The notes under the pieces: model-generated | Databases searched by the model: none | Told to the model about the DNA's origin: nothing | Seen by the model: only the letters and a program-made list of their open reading frames with translations | In this document: piece by piece, positions 2 to 22,895 of the stretch | Numbering within the stretch: position 1 is the first letter of the stretch | Layout: every line of letters begins with the position of its first letter | Made by a program: the position numbers and the translations under genes | Virus record (IMG/VR): IMGVR_UViG_2061766007_000205 | From: an uncultured virus (IMG/VR IMGVR_UViG_2061766007_000205) | Lineage: Duplodnaviria > Heunggongvirae > Uroviricota > Caudoviricetes | DNA length: 26,606 nt | Direction: 5' to 3' (one strand)

Positions 2-358
2 ACACCGCAGAGCGTTCTTGAAAAAGCACGAAATAAAAAGACGGAACTTCACAAATGTTTTGAATGGGATGATTCAGTAGCATCTGAAAAGTACCGCCTT
101 ATACAAGCAAGACAGATTATACAACATTTCGTGATAATTCACAACGAAGGTGAAGAAACCGAGCAAAAGATACGCTCATATCAGGTCACAACAGAAGCAA
201 CGAAGTATGAAAAGACCGAACTGTTTTTACAGAAGCCGGATGAATATGCCGCACTTCTGGAACGTGCAAAGGCGGAACTTGAAGCCTTTAAGAACAGATA
301 TAGGACTTTGACAGAACTTGAAAGCATTTTTGCAGAAATCGACTTATTGCTCACATAA
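2..358 (+). CDS. Conserved phage protein, 5'-truncated; partner of the RAMP-like gene (copy 1)
   Basis: The frame is open from base 2: TPQSVLEKARNKKTELHKCFEWDDSVASEKYRLIQARQIIQHFVII...ELEAFKNRYRTLTELESIFAEID. It aligns end-to-end with 1926..2369. The ORF track start at 131 is internal. Confidence 0.85.
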   Translation, partial: TPQSVLEKARNKKTELHKCFEWDDSVASEKYRLIQARQIIQHFVIIHNEGEETEQKIRSYQVTTEATKYEKTELFLQKPDEYAALLERAKAELEAFKNRYRTLTELESIFAEIDLLLT

Positions 359-364
359 GAATAA

Positions 365-580
365 GCCTTGATGGGTGGATTGTTGGCTATTTGCCAAAGT
401 AAAGGAAACTTCAATAAACAAAACCAAAGATAATCATAGCAAAGGAAACAATAGGACATTAAAAAACACTTTACATCAGATAGTCAGCAATGCACCTATC
501 AAGGCGAGCAGATTAAACATTAGAGAATAAGAACAAAATGCAGAACACTTTAGCAAACAATCAGCAAAGGAGAACAAAAA
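365..580 (+). ncRNA. Putative guide-like structured RNA, unit A: 29-bp stem enclosing a pentamer-periodic tract, followed by a second tract
   Basis: 365-393 pairs with 477-505 (G.U wobbles, one G.G mismatch). 396-480 reads as 17 pentamers, all with A at position 3. 510-559 adds 10 more such pentamers. Intergenic, directly upstream of the RAMP-like gene. Confidence 0.75.
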
Positions 581-581
581 C

Positions 582-1265
582 ATGGCAAAAAAGACAGAAA
601 CAATCGTATTGGAGCAGATAAGAAAAGGTAGTTTGATCGTAACAATCGAAGGTATGACAGACCTTCTGTTAAAGGCAATGCCCCGGTCAACAGAGTTAGA
701 GCAGATATTTAAGCAGTCACATCCGAAGGGAACAAAGATTCCTGCAAAGTTCACACAGCCGTATTGCTTGTGGGAAAAACTGATAACTTCTATTCATTGG
801 CAGAATCCTATCACGTTACATGACGATGATTGGTCGCTTTATACCGAAGATGAATGGAAGGACTACATGAAGAACAACAAGCCTTGCATCTTGGGTAAAG
901 CATTTAAGGATTCATTTAAGGAAACATTTGTTTCGTGCGGATTCAAGGAAACAACGGGCAAGGCAGGAACAGACTTTAACAGGACGGTATCAATATCCGC
1001 ATTGAACCCTGTAACATTTGTTGAAGCATCTTATGAACAGACGTTGCCGGAAACAAGCGGTTTGAATAGAACAAAAGTGTTGACGGAAACTAACAGATTC
1101 AGCGGTTGGAAGTGTGATTTTAAGATCAGTTATCTTGAATCCGCTTTCCCGAAAGAAACACTTATGGAAATCATTTCTTATGCCGGAGAGTTTATCGGTA
1201 TCGGCGCAAGACGTGGCGAAGGTTATGGAAGATATTGCATAACCAACATGAAAACAGCGGAATAA
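582..1265 (+). CDS. Stand-alone RAMP-superfamily (Cas7/Csm3-like) protein, copy 1
   Basis: N-terminal strand LIVTIEGMTDLLL; PCILGKAFKDSF resembling the RAMP P.IpGsslKG motif; C-terminal glycine-rich loop GIGARRGEGYGRY. RBS AAGGAG upstream. Confidence 0.75.
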   Translation: MAKKTETIVLEQIRKGSLIVTIEGMTDLLLKAMPRSTELEQIFKQSHPKGTKIPAKFTQPYCLWEKLITSIHWQNPITLHDDDWSLYTEDEWKDYMKNNKPCILGKAFKDSFKETFVSCGFKETTGKAGTDFNRTVSISALNPVTFVEASYEQTLPETSGLNRTKVLTETNRFSGWKCDFKISYLESAFPKETLMEIISYAGEFIGIGARRGEGYGRYCITNMKTAE

Positions 1266-1273
1266 ATAGTTGT

Positions 1274-1298
1274 AGCTGACCTAACGGCATGACGGGGT
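1274..1298 (+). promoter_or_regulatory. Conserved pseudoknot-like leader element upstream of recT (copy 1)
   Basis: agctgacctaacggcatgacggggt; near-identical copy at 3400-3423. GCUG/CGGC stem whose loop ACCU can pair with the downstream GGGU. Confidence 0.5.
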
Positions 1299-1315
1299 AG
1301 GGAAGGATATATCAC

Positions 1316-1575
1316 ATGGCAAATGAATTAACGGTTAAGGAAAAAGGTATTGCGGAGTACCTTGCAAGTCCGGCGGTCAAAGAGAATATCATCAATGTTT
1401 TAGGCGAGAAACACGCGGATGCTTTCATATCTGATTTAGTGGCTTGCGTTCAAAACAATACGGAATTAGCGAAATGCTCAAACAAGTCTATTTTTTCAGC
1501 GGCATTGTTAAGTAGGTCGATCAACTTACCACTTACACCGCAGTTATCTTATTGCTATCTCGTTCCATTTAACAA
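1316..1575 (+). CDS. recT: RecT-family ssDNA annealing protein, N-terminal part, cut by an assembly gap
   Basis: FISDLVACVQNNTELAKCSNKSIFSAALLSRSINLPLTPQLSYCYLVPF is a typical RecT N-terminus. Same syntenic slot as 3512..4279. Ends at the 10-N gap 1576-1585. Confidence 0.75.
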
Positions 1576-1737
1576 NNNNNNNNNNAAGGTACATCACCGA
1601 GAAGAAAGAACGTGATGCAAAGGTAGCGGAAATCCGCAAGAACAGGAGACTATCTCTCGAACTGTACCATCACAAGATAGAAAAGATGCGGCAGGAGGAT
1701 AAAAAGCACAAATACAAATGAAAGGAGGAAAGCACAC

Positions 1738-1926
1738 ATGATTTACAGAGTAATTCTGAAAGTTGGGTATCACAACGCACATTTCGATTTTGAAACGGTG
1801 GAAGATGCGGCAACATTCGCAAGGGTAGCATTGTCTCATATGGTTGATTGTGACGACACGAAAGCGAAAGCGTCTATCACGATGCTGATAATCGACCCTA
1901 CGAAGGAAAGTGAGGAGGATGACTGA
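1738..1926 (+). CDS. Small hypothetical phage protein
   Basis: 62-aa ORF with strong RBS AAAGGAGG; the stop overlaps the next start. Confidence 0.75.
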   Translation: MIYRVILKVGYHNAHFDFETVEDAATFARVALSHMVDCDDTKAKASITMLIIDPTKESEEDD

Positions 1927-2369
1927 TGGAAAGAATCAGATGGTCGGTTGAGGGACTTCACAAAGCTGATGCTCAAAAATGCTACAACGAATGTCAGACC
2001 CTTGAGGAAGTCACACCTGCAAACGTCCTTGAGAAAGCACGAAACAAGCGCACAGAACTTCATAAATGTTTCGAGTGGGATGACAGCATAGCGGGCGAGA
2101 AATACAGACTTATTCAGGCGAGAGACGTAATCCGGCATTTCGTGATATACACCCCTGATGAGGAAAACTTGCCGAAGATCCGTTCGTATCAGATTTCAAC
2201 AGAATGTACCAGATATGAACCTACTCGGATGTTTCTTCAGAACCCGGACGAGTACACGGAATTGCTTAAAAGGGCAAAGAATGAACTTGAAGCCTTTAAG
2301 CAGCGGTATAAGACCTTGACGGAACTTGAAACGATTTTTGAGGAGATCGACAGATTTCTCGAAGGATAG
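1926..2369 (+). CDS. Conserved phage protein (LHKCFEWDD motif); partner of the RAMP-like gene (copy 2)
   Basis: 147-aa ORF with GAGGAGG RBS; homologous to 2..358 and in the same position relative to the RNA array and RAMP gene. Confidence 0.85.
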   Translation: MERIRWSVEGLHKADAQKCYNECQTLEEVTPANVLEKARNKRTELHKCFEWDDSIAGEKYRLIQARDVIRHFVIYTPDEENLPKIRSYQISTECTRYEPTRMFLQNPDEYTELLKRAKNELEAFKQRYKTLTELETIFEEIDRFLEG

Positions 2370-2378
2370 AAATACCTA

Positions 2379-2504
2379 TAGCAAGCGTAGTGTTGGCTTT
2401 ATGCCAAAAGAAAAGTCTCAAAAAGCGAACCAAAGGAGAGATAAAAAAACCGAAAGAAACCACACTACACAAAACTAAACATAAAGTCAGCACTACGCTT
2501 GCTA
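2379..2504 (+). ncRNA. Putative guide-like RNA, unit B: 25-bp stem enclosing a pentamer tract
   Basis: 2379-2403 tagcaagcgtagtgttggctttatg pairs with 2480-2504 cataaagtcagcactacgcttgcta (two G.U). 2407-2481 is 15 pentamers, 14 with A at position 3. Confidence 0.75.
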
Positions 2505-2516
2505 AAAAAATACCAA

Positions 2517-2571
2517 AAACCAAAGCATACTTAACGAAACCAGATTAAAGGAAACGAAAGCAAATTACAGA
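2517..2571 (+). repeat. Pentamer-periodic linker tract between units B and C
   Basis: aaacc aaagc atact taacg aaacc agatt aaagg aaacg aaagc aaatt acaga: 11/11 with A at position 3. Confidence 0.75.
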
Positions 2572-2735
2572 TAGGACTTTGGCTTTATGCCAAAACTAAA
2601 GCAGACATTGAGAAGGAAAAGAACACTACACTAAAACTAACAAAAGCATGAAGTCAAACTCCTGTCTGTAATGAGACAGTACCAAAAGAAAGTCACGAAA
2701 GGAAACACACACCAAAACAAACTAAAAAACAGAAA
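2564..2735 (+). ncRNA. Putative guide-like RNA, unit C: 27-bp stem enclosing a pentamer tract, plus a trailing tract
   Basis: 2564-2590 pairs with 2646-2672 (three G.U, one C.C). 2593-2647 is 11 pentamers, 9 with A at position 3. Further AAA-NN units follow at 2674-2733 with register slips. Confidence 0.7.
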
Positions 2736-2747
2736 GGGGAAACAGCA

Positions 2748-3386
2748 ATGAAGAAAGAAGTTGAAGTTATCGAGTTTAAGCCTATTGTACCGAAAACGGT
2801 AGAAATCACGATTGAGGGTGATACGGATCTTGTGTTGAACAAGATGAATGATGTTACCACAAGACAGTTGACGGATGCCAGAAAGGACAAGGCAAAGGAT
2901 TTATCAAAGCCTAACGAATGGGAGGAGATCATCACGGCAGTTCATTGGATAAACGGCAAGCCGGAAGAGTTCTCGGAAAAGACCCTCAAGGAATGTCTGA
3001 ACCCGAAGAAAAATGCTCCTTGCATAACAGCTTTCGGACTTAAAAAGAGTTTCGGAGAGGCGCTTACTCGAAACAAAATCAGCACATACTCCACGGAGTT
3101 TAGGGCAACTGTAAATGTTATCGGGGAAAGAGCAAATCTCATTCCGATAAGGTTTTCTGAATATCATTTGGACGAAATGCTCATGTCACCGAAGAAGGGT
3201 GCGCCTGTCCTTGTAAAACTGAATAGGTTCAGCGGATGGAGTGCAAAATTCAGAATCAGTTTCCTTGAGAATGTGTACTCACTTGAGCAGATCGTGAACA
3301 TCATAAACTTATCTGGTTTCGGTATTGGTATCGGTTCAAGCAGAAACAGTGACTTTGGCAGGTATCATGTCACGAACATACAGTAA
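2748..3386 (+). CDS. Stand-alone RAMP-superfamily (Cas7/Csm3-like) protein, copy 2
   Basis: VEITIEGDTDLVLN, PCITAFGLKKSF, NRFSGW and the glycine-rich loop GFGIGIGSSRNSDFGRY. Clearly homologous to 582..1265. Confidence 0.75.
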   Translation: MKKEVEVIEFKPIVPKTVEITIEGDTDLVLNKMNDVTTRQLTDARKDKAKDLSKPNEWEEIITAVHWINGKPEEFSEKTLKECLNPKKNAPCITAFGLKKSFGEALTRNKISTYSTEFRATVNVIGERANLIPIRFSEYHLDEMLMSPKKGAPVLVKLNRFSGWSAKFRISFLENVYSLEQIVNIINLSGFGIGIGSSRNSDFGRYHVTNIQ

Positions 3387-3399
3387 ACCTCCATATATA

Positions 3400-3423
3400 A
3401 GCTGACCTATCGGCTATACGGGG
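3400..3423 (+). promoter_or_regulatory. Conserved pseudoknot-like leader element upstream of recT (copy 2)
   Basis: agctgacctatcggctatacgggg, matching 1274-1297; followed by an unstructured A-rich leader up to the recT RBS. Confidence 0.5.
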
Positions 3424-3511: not shown

Positions 3512-4279
3512 ATGGCAACGAATGACAAGAATTATTTGGTAGAGATTCACAGTGGGTTAAATGACAGCCTTGATAAGCAGGTGGCAGCATTACCCAAAAA
3601 TTTCAACAAACAAAGGTTTATGCAGAATTGCATGACAGTATTGCAGGACGGAACGGCAGACTTTTCAAAGTGCGATGCCAAAACCGTTGTCAGGACACTT
3701 CTAAAAGGAGCATTTCTCGGACTCGACTTTTTCAATGGCGAGTGTTACGCGATTCCATACGGGTCTAACGTTTCGTTTCAGACAAATTATACAGGCGAAA
3801 TCAAGCTGTGCAAGCGGTATTCAAGCAATCCCATTCAGGACATATATGCAAAGATTGTTCGTGATGGAGATCAGTTCGAAGAAATCATTGAGAACGGAAA
3901 GCAGACAGTTACGTTTCATCCAAAGGCTTTTAACAACGGAGAGATTATCGGTGCATTTGCGGTTTGTCTTTATAAAGATGGCGGCATGATATATGACACC
4001 ATGAGCGTTGCCGAAATCGAACATACTCGGCAGACATTTTCAAAAGCACCGAACAGTAAGGCATGGAAAGAGAGTTACGGGGAAATGTGCAAAAAGACCG
4101 TTCTCCGCAGACTTTGTAAACTAATTGACCTTAATTTCGATACGGCAGAACAGATGCAAGCCTTTGAGGACGGATCAGCCTTTGATGTGAAGGAACATAA
4201 GCCAGAGCCTGAAAAGGCGGTTGATGTTTACGCAGATGTCGAGGCGGTAGAGGTTACGGAGGAAACAAAGGATGAGTGA
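3512..4279 (+). CDS. recT: RecT-family recombinase / ssDNA annealing protein
   Basis: LGLDFFNGECYAIPYG, FQTNYTG, AFAVCLYKDGG and W...EMCKKTVLRRLCK motifs. Confidence 0.92.
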   Translation: MATNDKNYLVEIHSGLNDSLDKQVAALPKNFNKQRFMQNCMTVLQDGTADFSKCDAKTVVRTLLKGAFLGLDFFNGECYAIPYGSNVSFQTNYTGEIKLCKRYSSNPIQDIYAKIVRDGDQFEEIIENGKQTVTFHPKAFNNGEIIGAFAVCLYKDGGMIYDTMSVAEIEHTRQTFSKAPNSKAWKESYGEMCKKTVLRRLCKLIDLNFDTAEQMQAFEDGSAFDVKEHKPEPEKAVDVYADVEAVEVTEETKDE

Positions 4280-22196: not shown

Positions 22197-22230
22197 AAAA
22201 GAGGACGGGCAAAAAACCCGTTCTTTTTTT
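22197..22230 (+). terminator. Intrinsic terminator
   Basis: aaaagaggacggg-loop-cccgttc followed by T7. Confidence 0.8.
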
Positions 22231-22291
22231 GTGCGTCTTGACAATAACGGCGGNNNNNNNNNNNNNNNNNNNNNNNNNNNNNNNNNNNNNA

Positions 22292-22895
22292 ATGAATCTT
22301 GACGAGGACGGATATATTAACACCGACTATTATATAAACGCATCTATTGACATCATAACACGCGCAGCAGAGGAGCGCGGGCAAGATCCCAGACACTTGA
22401 CAACAAATGACGCTTTCGCATTATACAGAAGAGTATATAACACCCTATTTAAGCCAGAGCGTAGCGGGGGAGAGGAGAAGAGTCACCTTTTCGAGCCGGG
22501 ATGCAGTGTTAAATATAACGCCGAGAACCTGAAAAGACTCCTGATGGTATATAGTGCGGTCTNNNNNNNNNNNNNNNGTGGACGGGTTGCAGTGGTTAAC
22601 GGGTGTATATATCGATACGGTGGAAAAGTATGTTACCGGGGCGCGGTCATTCGTTCAAAATATCCGAAAAGACAACATACAAAACAGACTCCAGGCTTTC
22701 CCGATTGGAATAGTTACACTTGCAAATAACGACATCGACACGGGTCTTTGCTACAACCGCCAGAACATCACCGACCGGGCGACAGTTAGCAAGGCATTAA
22801 ACTTCTCCGACCTTGTGAGAATAGGTGAGAATGTCACCCAAAAAGAGAACGTTTCACAGCTAGAAACGGCACAAACACAAGATATTGTGGATTGA
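22292..22895 (+). CDS. Putative terminase small subunit (split by an N-gap)
   Basis: Two ORF halves joined across the gap at 22563-22577; lies upstream of the large terminase; TTGACA at 22238. Assignment is mainly positional. Confidence 0.5.

Follow-up and report, generated by a model that had tools for sequence, protein, structure and literature searches.

Organization of the locus

The viral record IMGVR_UViG_2061766007_000205 of IMG/VR, an uncultured member of Caudoviricetes, comprises 26,606 nucleotides (nt), hereafter the window. Near its left end, three long stems enclose A-rich tracts of tandem pentamers, and genes coding for putative Vipr proteins lie downstream of them. Vipr is the small RAMP protein of VIPR, a CRISPR-like RNA-guided DNA silencer described in 2026 preprints (10.64898/2026.04.26.720920 and.720927; 10.64898/2026.10.15.759431; 10.64898/2026.10.21.760802). 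In the published systems, Vipr polymerises on a guide RNA, the vrRNA, of 9-16 pentamers in which a fixed GGY alternates with variable NN, and recognition of double-stranded DNA, with a one-base skip, falls to NN. Here and below, statements about published VIPR systems refer to the text of these preprints.

The window contains two diverged copies of one module (Table 1). In both, a gene of the phrog_15946 family (the accessory gene) is followed by an A-rich intergenic region with stems, a gene of PHROG family 4652 (vipr), and RecT. The copies are divided by a run of ten Ns at positions 1577-1586, which truncates RecT of copy 1; the two phrog_15946 proteins are 71% identical to each other. The copy 1 Vipr protein is identical to the product of a gene on a 56-kb viral contig (L055), and the window may therefore be a composite, i.e., a scaffold of two related phages and not one genome with two systems. 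Phage genes were found across the window and include RecT, a DUF3799 exonuclease, HNH nucleases, a DnaD-like replication protein, and a G39P-like helicase loader.

More than 1,900 proteins of the family were found in metagenomes. Prophage relatives were found in metagenome-assembled genomes of Lachnospiraceae, Oscillospiraceae, and other Clostridia from gut and rumen. Loci whose Vipr shares 50% or more identity with copy 2 are called A-type, as is copy 1 itself; those with a distant Vipr (24-29% identical) are called G-type. The stem analysis drew on the window and 15 related loci, which together provided 42 hairpins; pentamer runs were compared in 56 sources, and gene neighbourhoods in 55 related loci. 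No cultured-phage record matched A-type Vipr. For Vipr of the G-type members (L037-L054), 33 GenBank records of cultured phages of Gordonia and Mycobacterium contain homologs, 35-39% identical and annotated as hypothetical proteins.

Table 1. Features of the two modules in the window (z, z score; E, E-value; aa, amino acids; pLDDT, predicted local distance difference test score of the AlphaFold model)
Feature	Position	Strand	Evidence or remark
phrog_15946-family gene (candidate vap), copy 1, 3' part	2..358	+	PHROG E 1.6e-17; cut by window start
Unit 1, 5' arm of long stem	365..393	+	covariance model match 362-508, E 2.5e-22
Unit 1, core / local 5' handle hairpin UUGGC/GCCAA	383..397	+	local fold -6.4 kcal/mol
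Unit 1, putative guide tract, ~16 pentamers, AAA/NN type	394..476	+	period-5 z 8.6; third fixed position A in 100% of pentamers
Unit 1, 3' arm	477..505	+	with AGTCA
vipr copy 1 (putative), 227 aa, single-RRM RAMP	582..1265	+	member of family alignment matching SUSP1 Vipr; 31% identical to copy 2
phrog_15946-family gene (candidate vap), copy 2, 147 aa	1926..2369	+	pLDDT 85.3
Unit 2, 5' arm, core at 2393-2407	2377..2403	+	covariance model match 2372-2511, E 6e-23
Unit 2, putative guide tract, ~15 pentamers	2404..2479	+	period-5 z 3.2
Unit 2, 3' arm	2480..2506	+	with AGTCA
Inter-unit spacer, period-5 A-rich tract, possibly unstemmed guide	2507..2563	+	period-5 z 4.5
Unit 3, 5' arm, core at 2579-2593	2564..2590	+	covariance model match 2558-2678, E 1.4e-19
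Unit 3, putative guide tract, 11 pentamers	2591..2645	+	period-5 z 3.1
Unit 3, 3' arm	2646..2672	+	with AGTCA
vipr copy 2 (putative), 212 aa, single-RRM RAMP	2748..3386	+	family profile versus PDB 36pp_D, E 9.2e-10; pLDDT 88.4

Pairing and conservation of the long stems

The first-pass annotation of this DNA had placed three long stems in the intergenic regions, described their deviations as almost all G.U, and attributed them to selection at the RNA level on the plus strand. All three stems were confirmed where they had been drawn. Stem 1 (365-393/477-505) has 29 positions, with 24 Watson-Crick pairs, four G.U pairs, and one G.G mismatch. Stem 2 (2379-2403/2480-2504) has 25 base pairs (bp), two of them G.U, and is extendable to 2377-2403/2480-2506 with one mismatch; stem 3 (2564-2590/2646-2672) has 27 positions, including three G.U pairs and one C.C mismatch. 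Summed over the three stems, nine G.U pairs stand against two true mismatches (three with stem 2 extended).

The stems are far above chance expectation. RNAfold gave a z score of -6.6 for positions 355-585, with none of 200 shuffled sequences as stable, and of -7.6 for positions 2365-2750, with none of 100 as stable. The whole window was scanned for stems spanning 22 or more positions, with G.U permitted, no more than two mismatches, and a loop of 30-160. The three stems were recovered, each with 26-28 pairs; besides them there was a single weak stem at position 22219, with 20 pairs. On the minus strand, just one of the three stems passed the same scan. Twenty Markov-simulated windows contained 0-2 such stems each, all weaker, and 14 of the twenty contained none. 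The weak inverted repeat (22219-22377) lies in the late region and has 20 of 22 positions paired and a loop of ca. 115 nt.

Related A-type loci contain one to four stem hairpins (five in L030) between the accessory gene and vipr. Stem length in the 42-hairpin set is 24-34 bp (median 28), with at most two mismatches. Counted from the loop, G.U pairs are concentrated at positions 8-14 and mismatches at 13-17; the outer half is nearly all Watson-Crick. A MAFFT alignment of nine units with 30 pairs was used as the seed of a covariance model. In this seed clade, one G.U pair is invariant (9/9) and is flanked by invariant G-C and C-G pairs. Both sides change in 24 of the 30 seed pairs, and 89.3% of seed cells are paired versus 31-39% when the partners are slid, a value reached by none of 500 shuffles. 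Covariation in homologous loci, for which the annotation had suggested a check, is strong.

Searches with the covariance model yielded 41 full-length matches at E of 4e-4 or below, all on the plus strand. They came from the window and from 14 of the 15 A-type loci, and from none of ten G-type loci; the A-type locus missed by the model, L026, has a hairpin that was detected by the stem finder. All 30 pairs covary in the model-fitted alignment, an alignment that itself favours the structure. In an independent set of Clostridia prophages from metagenome-assembled genomes, matches were obtained in seven of eight A-type loci and in none of three G-type loci.

When stems were detected in a strand-symmetric way, 140 G.U pairs were counted versus 79 A.C pairs. 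G.U pairs were more numerous in 29 stems, A.C pairs in eight, and five stems had equal numbers; many of the A.C "pairs" are artefacts of extension into A/C-rich loops. The excess of G.U, together with the occurrence of covariance model matches and pentamer runs on the plus strand only, supports the conclusion that selection on the stems acts on plus-strand RNA, as had been proposed. The same observations make it very improbable that the inverted repeats act as DNA, for instance by forming cruciforms, by folding into single-strand hairpins during replication or recombination near RecT, or by serving as sites at which guide cassettes are swapped. Such a function would fit the position of the array next to the RecT/exonuclease module and the preservation of arms while loops are exchanged between relatives, but wobble pairs favour one strand, matches and pentamer runs are confined to the plus strand, and the code in the loops is that of guides in an RNA-guided system.

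The arms evolve more slowly than the loops: across 16 pairs of close relatives, which are not independent, substitutions per site amount to 0.031 in arms versus 0.04-0.19 in loops. In a 197-nt contig of run X3, from another sample, both inner arms of unit 2 are kept (2387-2409 and 2478-2496) around a different loop (97 versus 68 nt), which looks like guide replacement inside a constant scaffold.

A 15-nt core spans the junction of 5' arm and loop in each window unit; its exact sequence is found at positions 383, 2393, and 2579 and is otherwise absent from the window. This core can fold into a local UUGGC/GCCAA hairpin, with energies of -6.4 to -7.5 kcal/mol in the window units, or its 5' part can pair within the long stem, whose 3' arm carries AGTCA in all three cases. 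Both the constant AGUCA and the two mutually exclusive folds had been noted from the sequence, and the local fold energies and long-stem pairing uphold them. The core exemplifies a 5' handle hairpin of general occurrence, whose formation competes with pairing of the long stem's inner half. A hairpin of 4-8 bp is present at the junction of arm and loop in 41 of the 42 units (energy of -3 or below; mean -7.6 kcal/mol, mean z -3.2). The effect is specific to the junction: an energy of -5 kcal/mol or below was reached in 38 of 42 units there, versus 0-5 of 42 at four control positions. The handle sequences vary (TTGGC/GCCAA, GGTG/CACC, GGCGGT/ACCGCC, GGGC/GCCC, and others). For units 1-3 of the window, the complete long stem is 9-11 kcal/mol more stable than the combination of outer stem and handle; the precursor would therefore be closed, with the handle forming solely after release of the inner helix.

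A conserved motif of ca. 24 nt is located 9-15 nt after the vipr stop codon (1274-1297 and 3400-3423 in the window; 3659 in L001, 3682 in L002, and 2693 in L055). All five loci or copies with this motif belong to the clade with the TTGGCT handle. Pairing of the motif with 3' arms was considered and rejected, since the complementarity extends over 6 nt alone, is not kept in L001 and L002, and is probably due to chance.

Vipr proteins and the pentamer code

No Pfam model matched the Vipr proteins. A family profile, built from an alignment of 24 diverse members, had a single match among solved structures, PDB 36pp_D, the "SUSP1 Vipr protein" (E 9.2e-10). The match covers the C-terminal 64 residues, in which the glycine-rich loop lies. 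The AlphaFold model of copy 2 (pLDDT 88.4) was matched by Foldseek to Csm3/Cmr/Cas7 RAMP chains, with E-values of 3e-6 and above and a TM score of about 0.5 (0.52). Profile and fold thus agree on the attributes of a Vipr, i.e., a small, single-RRM RAMP with a glycine-rich loop and a thumb, and we conclude that, as judged by homology and the structure model, the genes at 582-1265 and 2748-3386 encode Vipr homologs. The suggestion that the neighbouring gene codes for a RAMP is borne out and narrowed to this family. An assignment as Cas6d was discarded; the PADLOC match behind it is weak (E 0.0017) and concerns one of the two vipr copies.

The loops had been read as guide-type pentamer tracts, which agrees with their periodicity. 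Period 5 is the best period in 38 of the 42 loops, with z above 3 in 33. The pooled pentamer has A (.73) at the first position, C (.41), A (.32), or T (.20) at the second, where G accounts for 7%, and A (.81) at the third, followed by two free positions. Three constrained and two free positions, repeated 11-17 times per loop in the window and 11-20 times across the clade, correspond to the make-up of a pentamer guide, with its fixed and variable positions and ca. 9-16 units. The fixed motif differs: it is A-H-A, and neither GGY nor any of NNNGG, YNNNG, and NNNNG, which are, with YNNGG, the repeat motifs given in the first VIPR preprint.

The two kinds of code follow the two kinds of Vipr. Runs of at least five AHANN units were found in 37 of 39 A-type sources, and runs of at least five NNNGG units in 17 of 18 loci with distant Vipr, the eighteenth being cut just after the gene. 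No source had both run types, none had runs on the minus strand, and the 39 A-type sources contained no NNNGG run. The distant members (L037-L054) have their canonical NNNGG/YNNGG arrays between vipr and the accessory gene and lack long stems; in L039, a textbook G-type array lies there at 3640-3850.

According to a structural VIPR preprint, residues H17, D177, and W178 of SUSP1 Vipr contact the two guanines, and R179 lies on the pyrimidine. The corresponding positions were compared using a HMMER alignment to SUSP1 and the family alignment. They are H, E, W, and R in all eight G-type rows, and N, S, G or S, and R in 15 of the 16 A-type rows; the sixteenth, window copy 1, has K, A, R, and R. 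Since the guanine-reading residues differ in step with A-type versus G-type tracts, Vipr and its guide RNA appear to have changed together. The tracts would then be vrRNA guides that read DNA through their NN positions, as we infer from the code and the identity of the adjacent protein.

The spacers between non-adjacent units are themselves periodic, with period-5 z above 3 in 11 of 13 long spacers, including 2507-2563 of the window. Among the leaders preceding vipr, one of the 13 long enough to test had period 5. The spacer tracts could be extra guides, freed when both neighbouring stems are cut.

Proposed guide maturation and relation to known systems

Thirteen of 17 arrays, namely both window arrays and those of 11 of 15 related loci, have their first stem starting 1-18 nt past the accessory-gene stop codon. 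Between the end of the last stem and the start of vipr lie 23-117 nt. Extra units lie downstream of vipr in L003 (3624-3755), L012 (3629-3764), L028 (3659-3795), and L030 (4509-4662), and a stem-enclosed unit lies upstream of the accessory gene in L055 (948-1089); the window has no unit at either place. A consensus scan of the plus strand revealed no promoter-like or terminator-like sites inside the arrays. Terminator, attenuator, and promoter functions of the stems were considered and rejected: the loops are 55-110 nt long, no U-tract follows, and there are no consensus sites. Rfam had no matches in the window, ribozymes included. The intergenic space between vipr and the conserved gene upstream is taken up by the units, which are therefore probably cut out of polycistronic RNA. 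Two 151-nt contigs of one bovine-gut metatranscriptome cover positions 2544-2772, at most a weak hint of expression.

An accessory homolog adjoins vipr in 54 of the 55 related loci, G-type ones included. The accessory protein has no Pfam match, and its AlphaFold model (pLDDT 85.3) has no structural match at E of 0.001 or below. With vipr, a conserved accessory gene, and adjacent arrays in phage or prophage DNA, these loci have the composition of a VIPR locus.

We consider it probable that the long stems are the closing helices of vrRNA precursor units in a phage VIPR system and that they serve guide processing as follows. The operon would run from the accessory gene through one to four vrRNA units to vipr. 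Each unit would consist of an outer helix of ca. 13 bp, free to vary in sequence; a hinge, often mismatched; an inner helix of ca. 13-15 bp, conserved within a clade and rich in G.U; and the A-H-A/N-N loop, which is the putative guide. The 5' strand of the inner helix would alternatively pair with the first bases of the loop to form the small handle hairpin. The units would be co-transcribed with the flanking genes, whereupon the long helix would form, marking the unit and insulating the unstructured A-rich tract. A double-strand-specific nuclease, most likely host RNase III, would cut the helix, freeing the unit and separating the two mRNAs. The inner helix, weakened by G.U pairs, would open as Vipr polymerises on the tract, leaving the handle hairpin as a 5' cap, and the Vipr-vrRNA filament would read DNA via NN, as in SUSP1. 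Host RNase III cleavage is plausible; the enzyme acts on near-perfect helices of about two turns or more, and stems of 24-34 bp are of this kind. Cleavage, the fold switch, loading, and targeting are all parts of the model that we infer; RNase III cleavage and capping of the guide by the local hairpin had likewise been suggested in the annotation. Some opening step would in any case be required, because a closed loop presumably cannot lie along an extended filament of the SUSP1 type. The annotation had also called the core a repeat-like handle for loading or processing: a conserved, handle-like element with two folds it is, and its role in either process stays a proposal.

Several results weigh against parts of this model. 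In the fitted alignment, 63.9% of handle cells are paired versus 57.5% after shuffling, with the observed value reached by 6 of 500 shuffles, and the register of the handle shifts between clades. Support for the handle is energetic and obtained per sequence, its position and loop size differing between clades. The periodic spacers have no stem or handle of their own, and a stem is therefore not required around every tract. Substitutions between close relatives (the 16 non-independent pairs) are not confined to NN, and the middle fixed position is the most variable. A search of the window and the 55 loci (710 kb, both strands, skips of 0-3 nt, five registers) returned no natural target above shuffled-order guides besides a trivial self match; one 26/30 match lay in the A-rich fixed register and was discarded. 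Finally, the handle class does not follow the Vipr phylogeny: the window copies, 31% identical, have nearly the same handle, while L003-type loci, whose Vipr is 65% identical, carry another class. Thus, Vipr is possibly not the reader of the handle.

The last result bears on another explanation, namely that the inner helix and handle are a binding site for the accessory protein, or for another factor that recruits or licenses guides, the outer helix merely stabilising it. The accessory gene stands beside vipr nearly everywhere, and in the window the class of handle follows the accessory protein (71% identity) better than Vipr (31%). The accessory protein, however, has no recognisable fold and belongs to no recognisable RNA-binding family, and G-type relatives keep its gene while having no long stems. 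We regard this explanation as improbable as a substitute for processing; it is compatible with the processing model and not exclusive of it.

It is also conceivable, though unlikely, that the stems are never cut and act as persistent clamps, which would shield the A-rich tract from single-strand nucleases and ribosomes, limit Vipr polymerisation, and be melted by Vipr loading or another route of release. The same structural evidence fits such clamps, G.U-rich inner helices are easily opened, and the 3' pseudoknot of SUSP1 caps the guide with no nuclease step stated in the VIPR preprints. On the other side, the units lie inside an operon and have no promoter-like or terminator-like sites of their own, which argues for a release step if a guide of ca. 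100 nt is to be made, and a 28-bp helix joining both ends of a filament of 11-17 protomers would ill fit the extended, DNA-threading filament described for SUSP1.

The processing model can be extended to a broader proposal, in which phages of gut Clostridia harbour a VIPR clade whose scaffold went from GGY/NN to AHA/NN with matching changes in Vipr, and whose guides come from a two-state precursor, excised by RNase III and capped by the handle. This is tentative, and we hold it to be possible rather than probable. VIPR work to date concerns two G-type systems from Proteobacteria. A fixed trinucleotide that can shift from G-rich to A-rich along with three identifiable protein positions would offer a handle on how Vipr reads its scaffold. 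Guides that can be embedded in an operon and bounded by long covarying helices point to maturation that depends on the host, and the guide would have a built-in structural switch. All these points bear on efforts to engineer VIPR into a compact tool for DNA targeting. If true, the broader proposal would provide a route of guide biogenesis new for VIPR and a natural example of re-engineering the fixed part of the code.

The VIPR system itself is already known; the packaging of A-rich guides in stems, as deduced here from sequence, is not described. Our literature search found no paper combining vrRNA with RNase III. Neither "stem" nor "RNase III" occurs in the main text of three VIPR preprints, where "hairpin" and "processing" appear in unrelated contexts only, and "stem" and "RNase" are absent from the text of one supplement. 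The system is closest to VIPR type II (Escherichia phage SUSP1 and a Pseudomonas fulva prophage). It shares with it a phage single-RRM RAMP with sequence homology, tandem-pentamer guides with three fixed and two variable bases (9-16 units there, 11-17 here), and a minimal locus with one accessory gene and several guides. It differs in having a fixed A-H-A instead of GGY, with H17, D177, and W178 replaced; in the location of guides upstream of vipr, inside the operon; and in the closure of each tract by a 24-34-bp helix, the tract starting with a small handle hairpin. Minimum free energy and centroid folds of the two window arrays, in which the tracts run straight into the 3' arm, showed neither a 3' tail nor a pseudoknot as in the SUSP1 clade; no dedicated search was made. 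Vipr-like folds beside period-5 arrays with fixed bases other than GGY are also described in bioRxiv 10.64898/2026.10.21.760802, which reports the further non-canonical motifs GAC, CAC, WGT, and TGH. The text of the VIPR preprints, figures aside, does not name an A-H-A motif and makes no mention of closing stems.

The vrRNA arrays interspersed with hammerhead ribozymes and the staggered arrays of the first VIPR preprint are likewise ways to split a transcript with several guides. Here there is no Rfam ribozyme, and the borders of units are long helices that would need a host nuclease. The repeat hairpins of CRISPR arrays cut by Cas6 are similar in that a small conserved hairpin borders the guide and a RAMP gene is adjacent; the present arrays differ in having no direct repeats or spacers, and their handles, of 4-8 bp, differ between units. 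In rRNA precursors, phage early transcripts, and tracrRNA:crRNA duplexes, a flanking helix of more than 20 bp is cut by RNase III to release a functional RNA. The helices of the window resemble such processing stems, with the difference that they also overlap an alternative local hairpin and that their cleavage is predicted.

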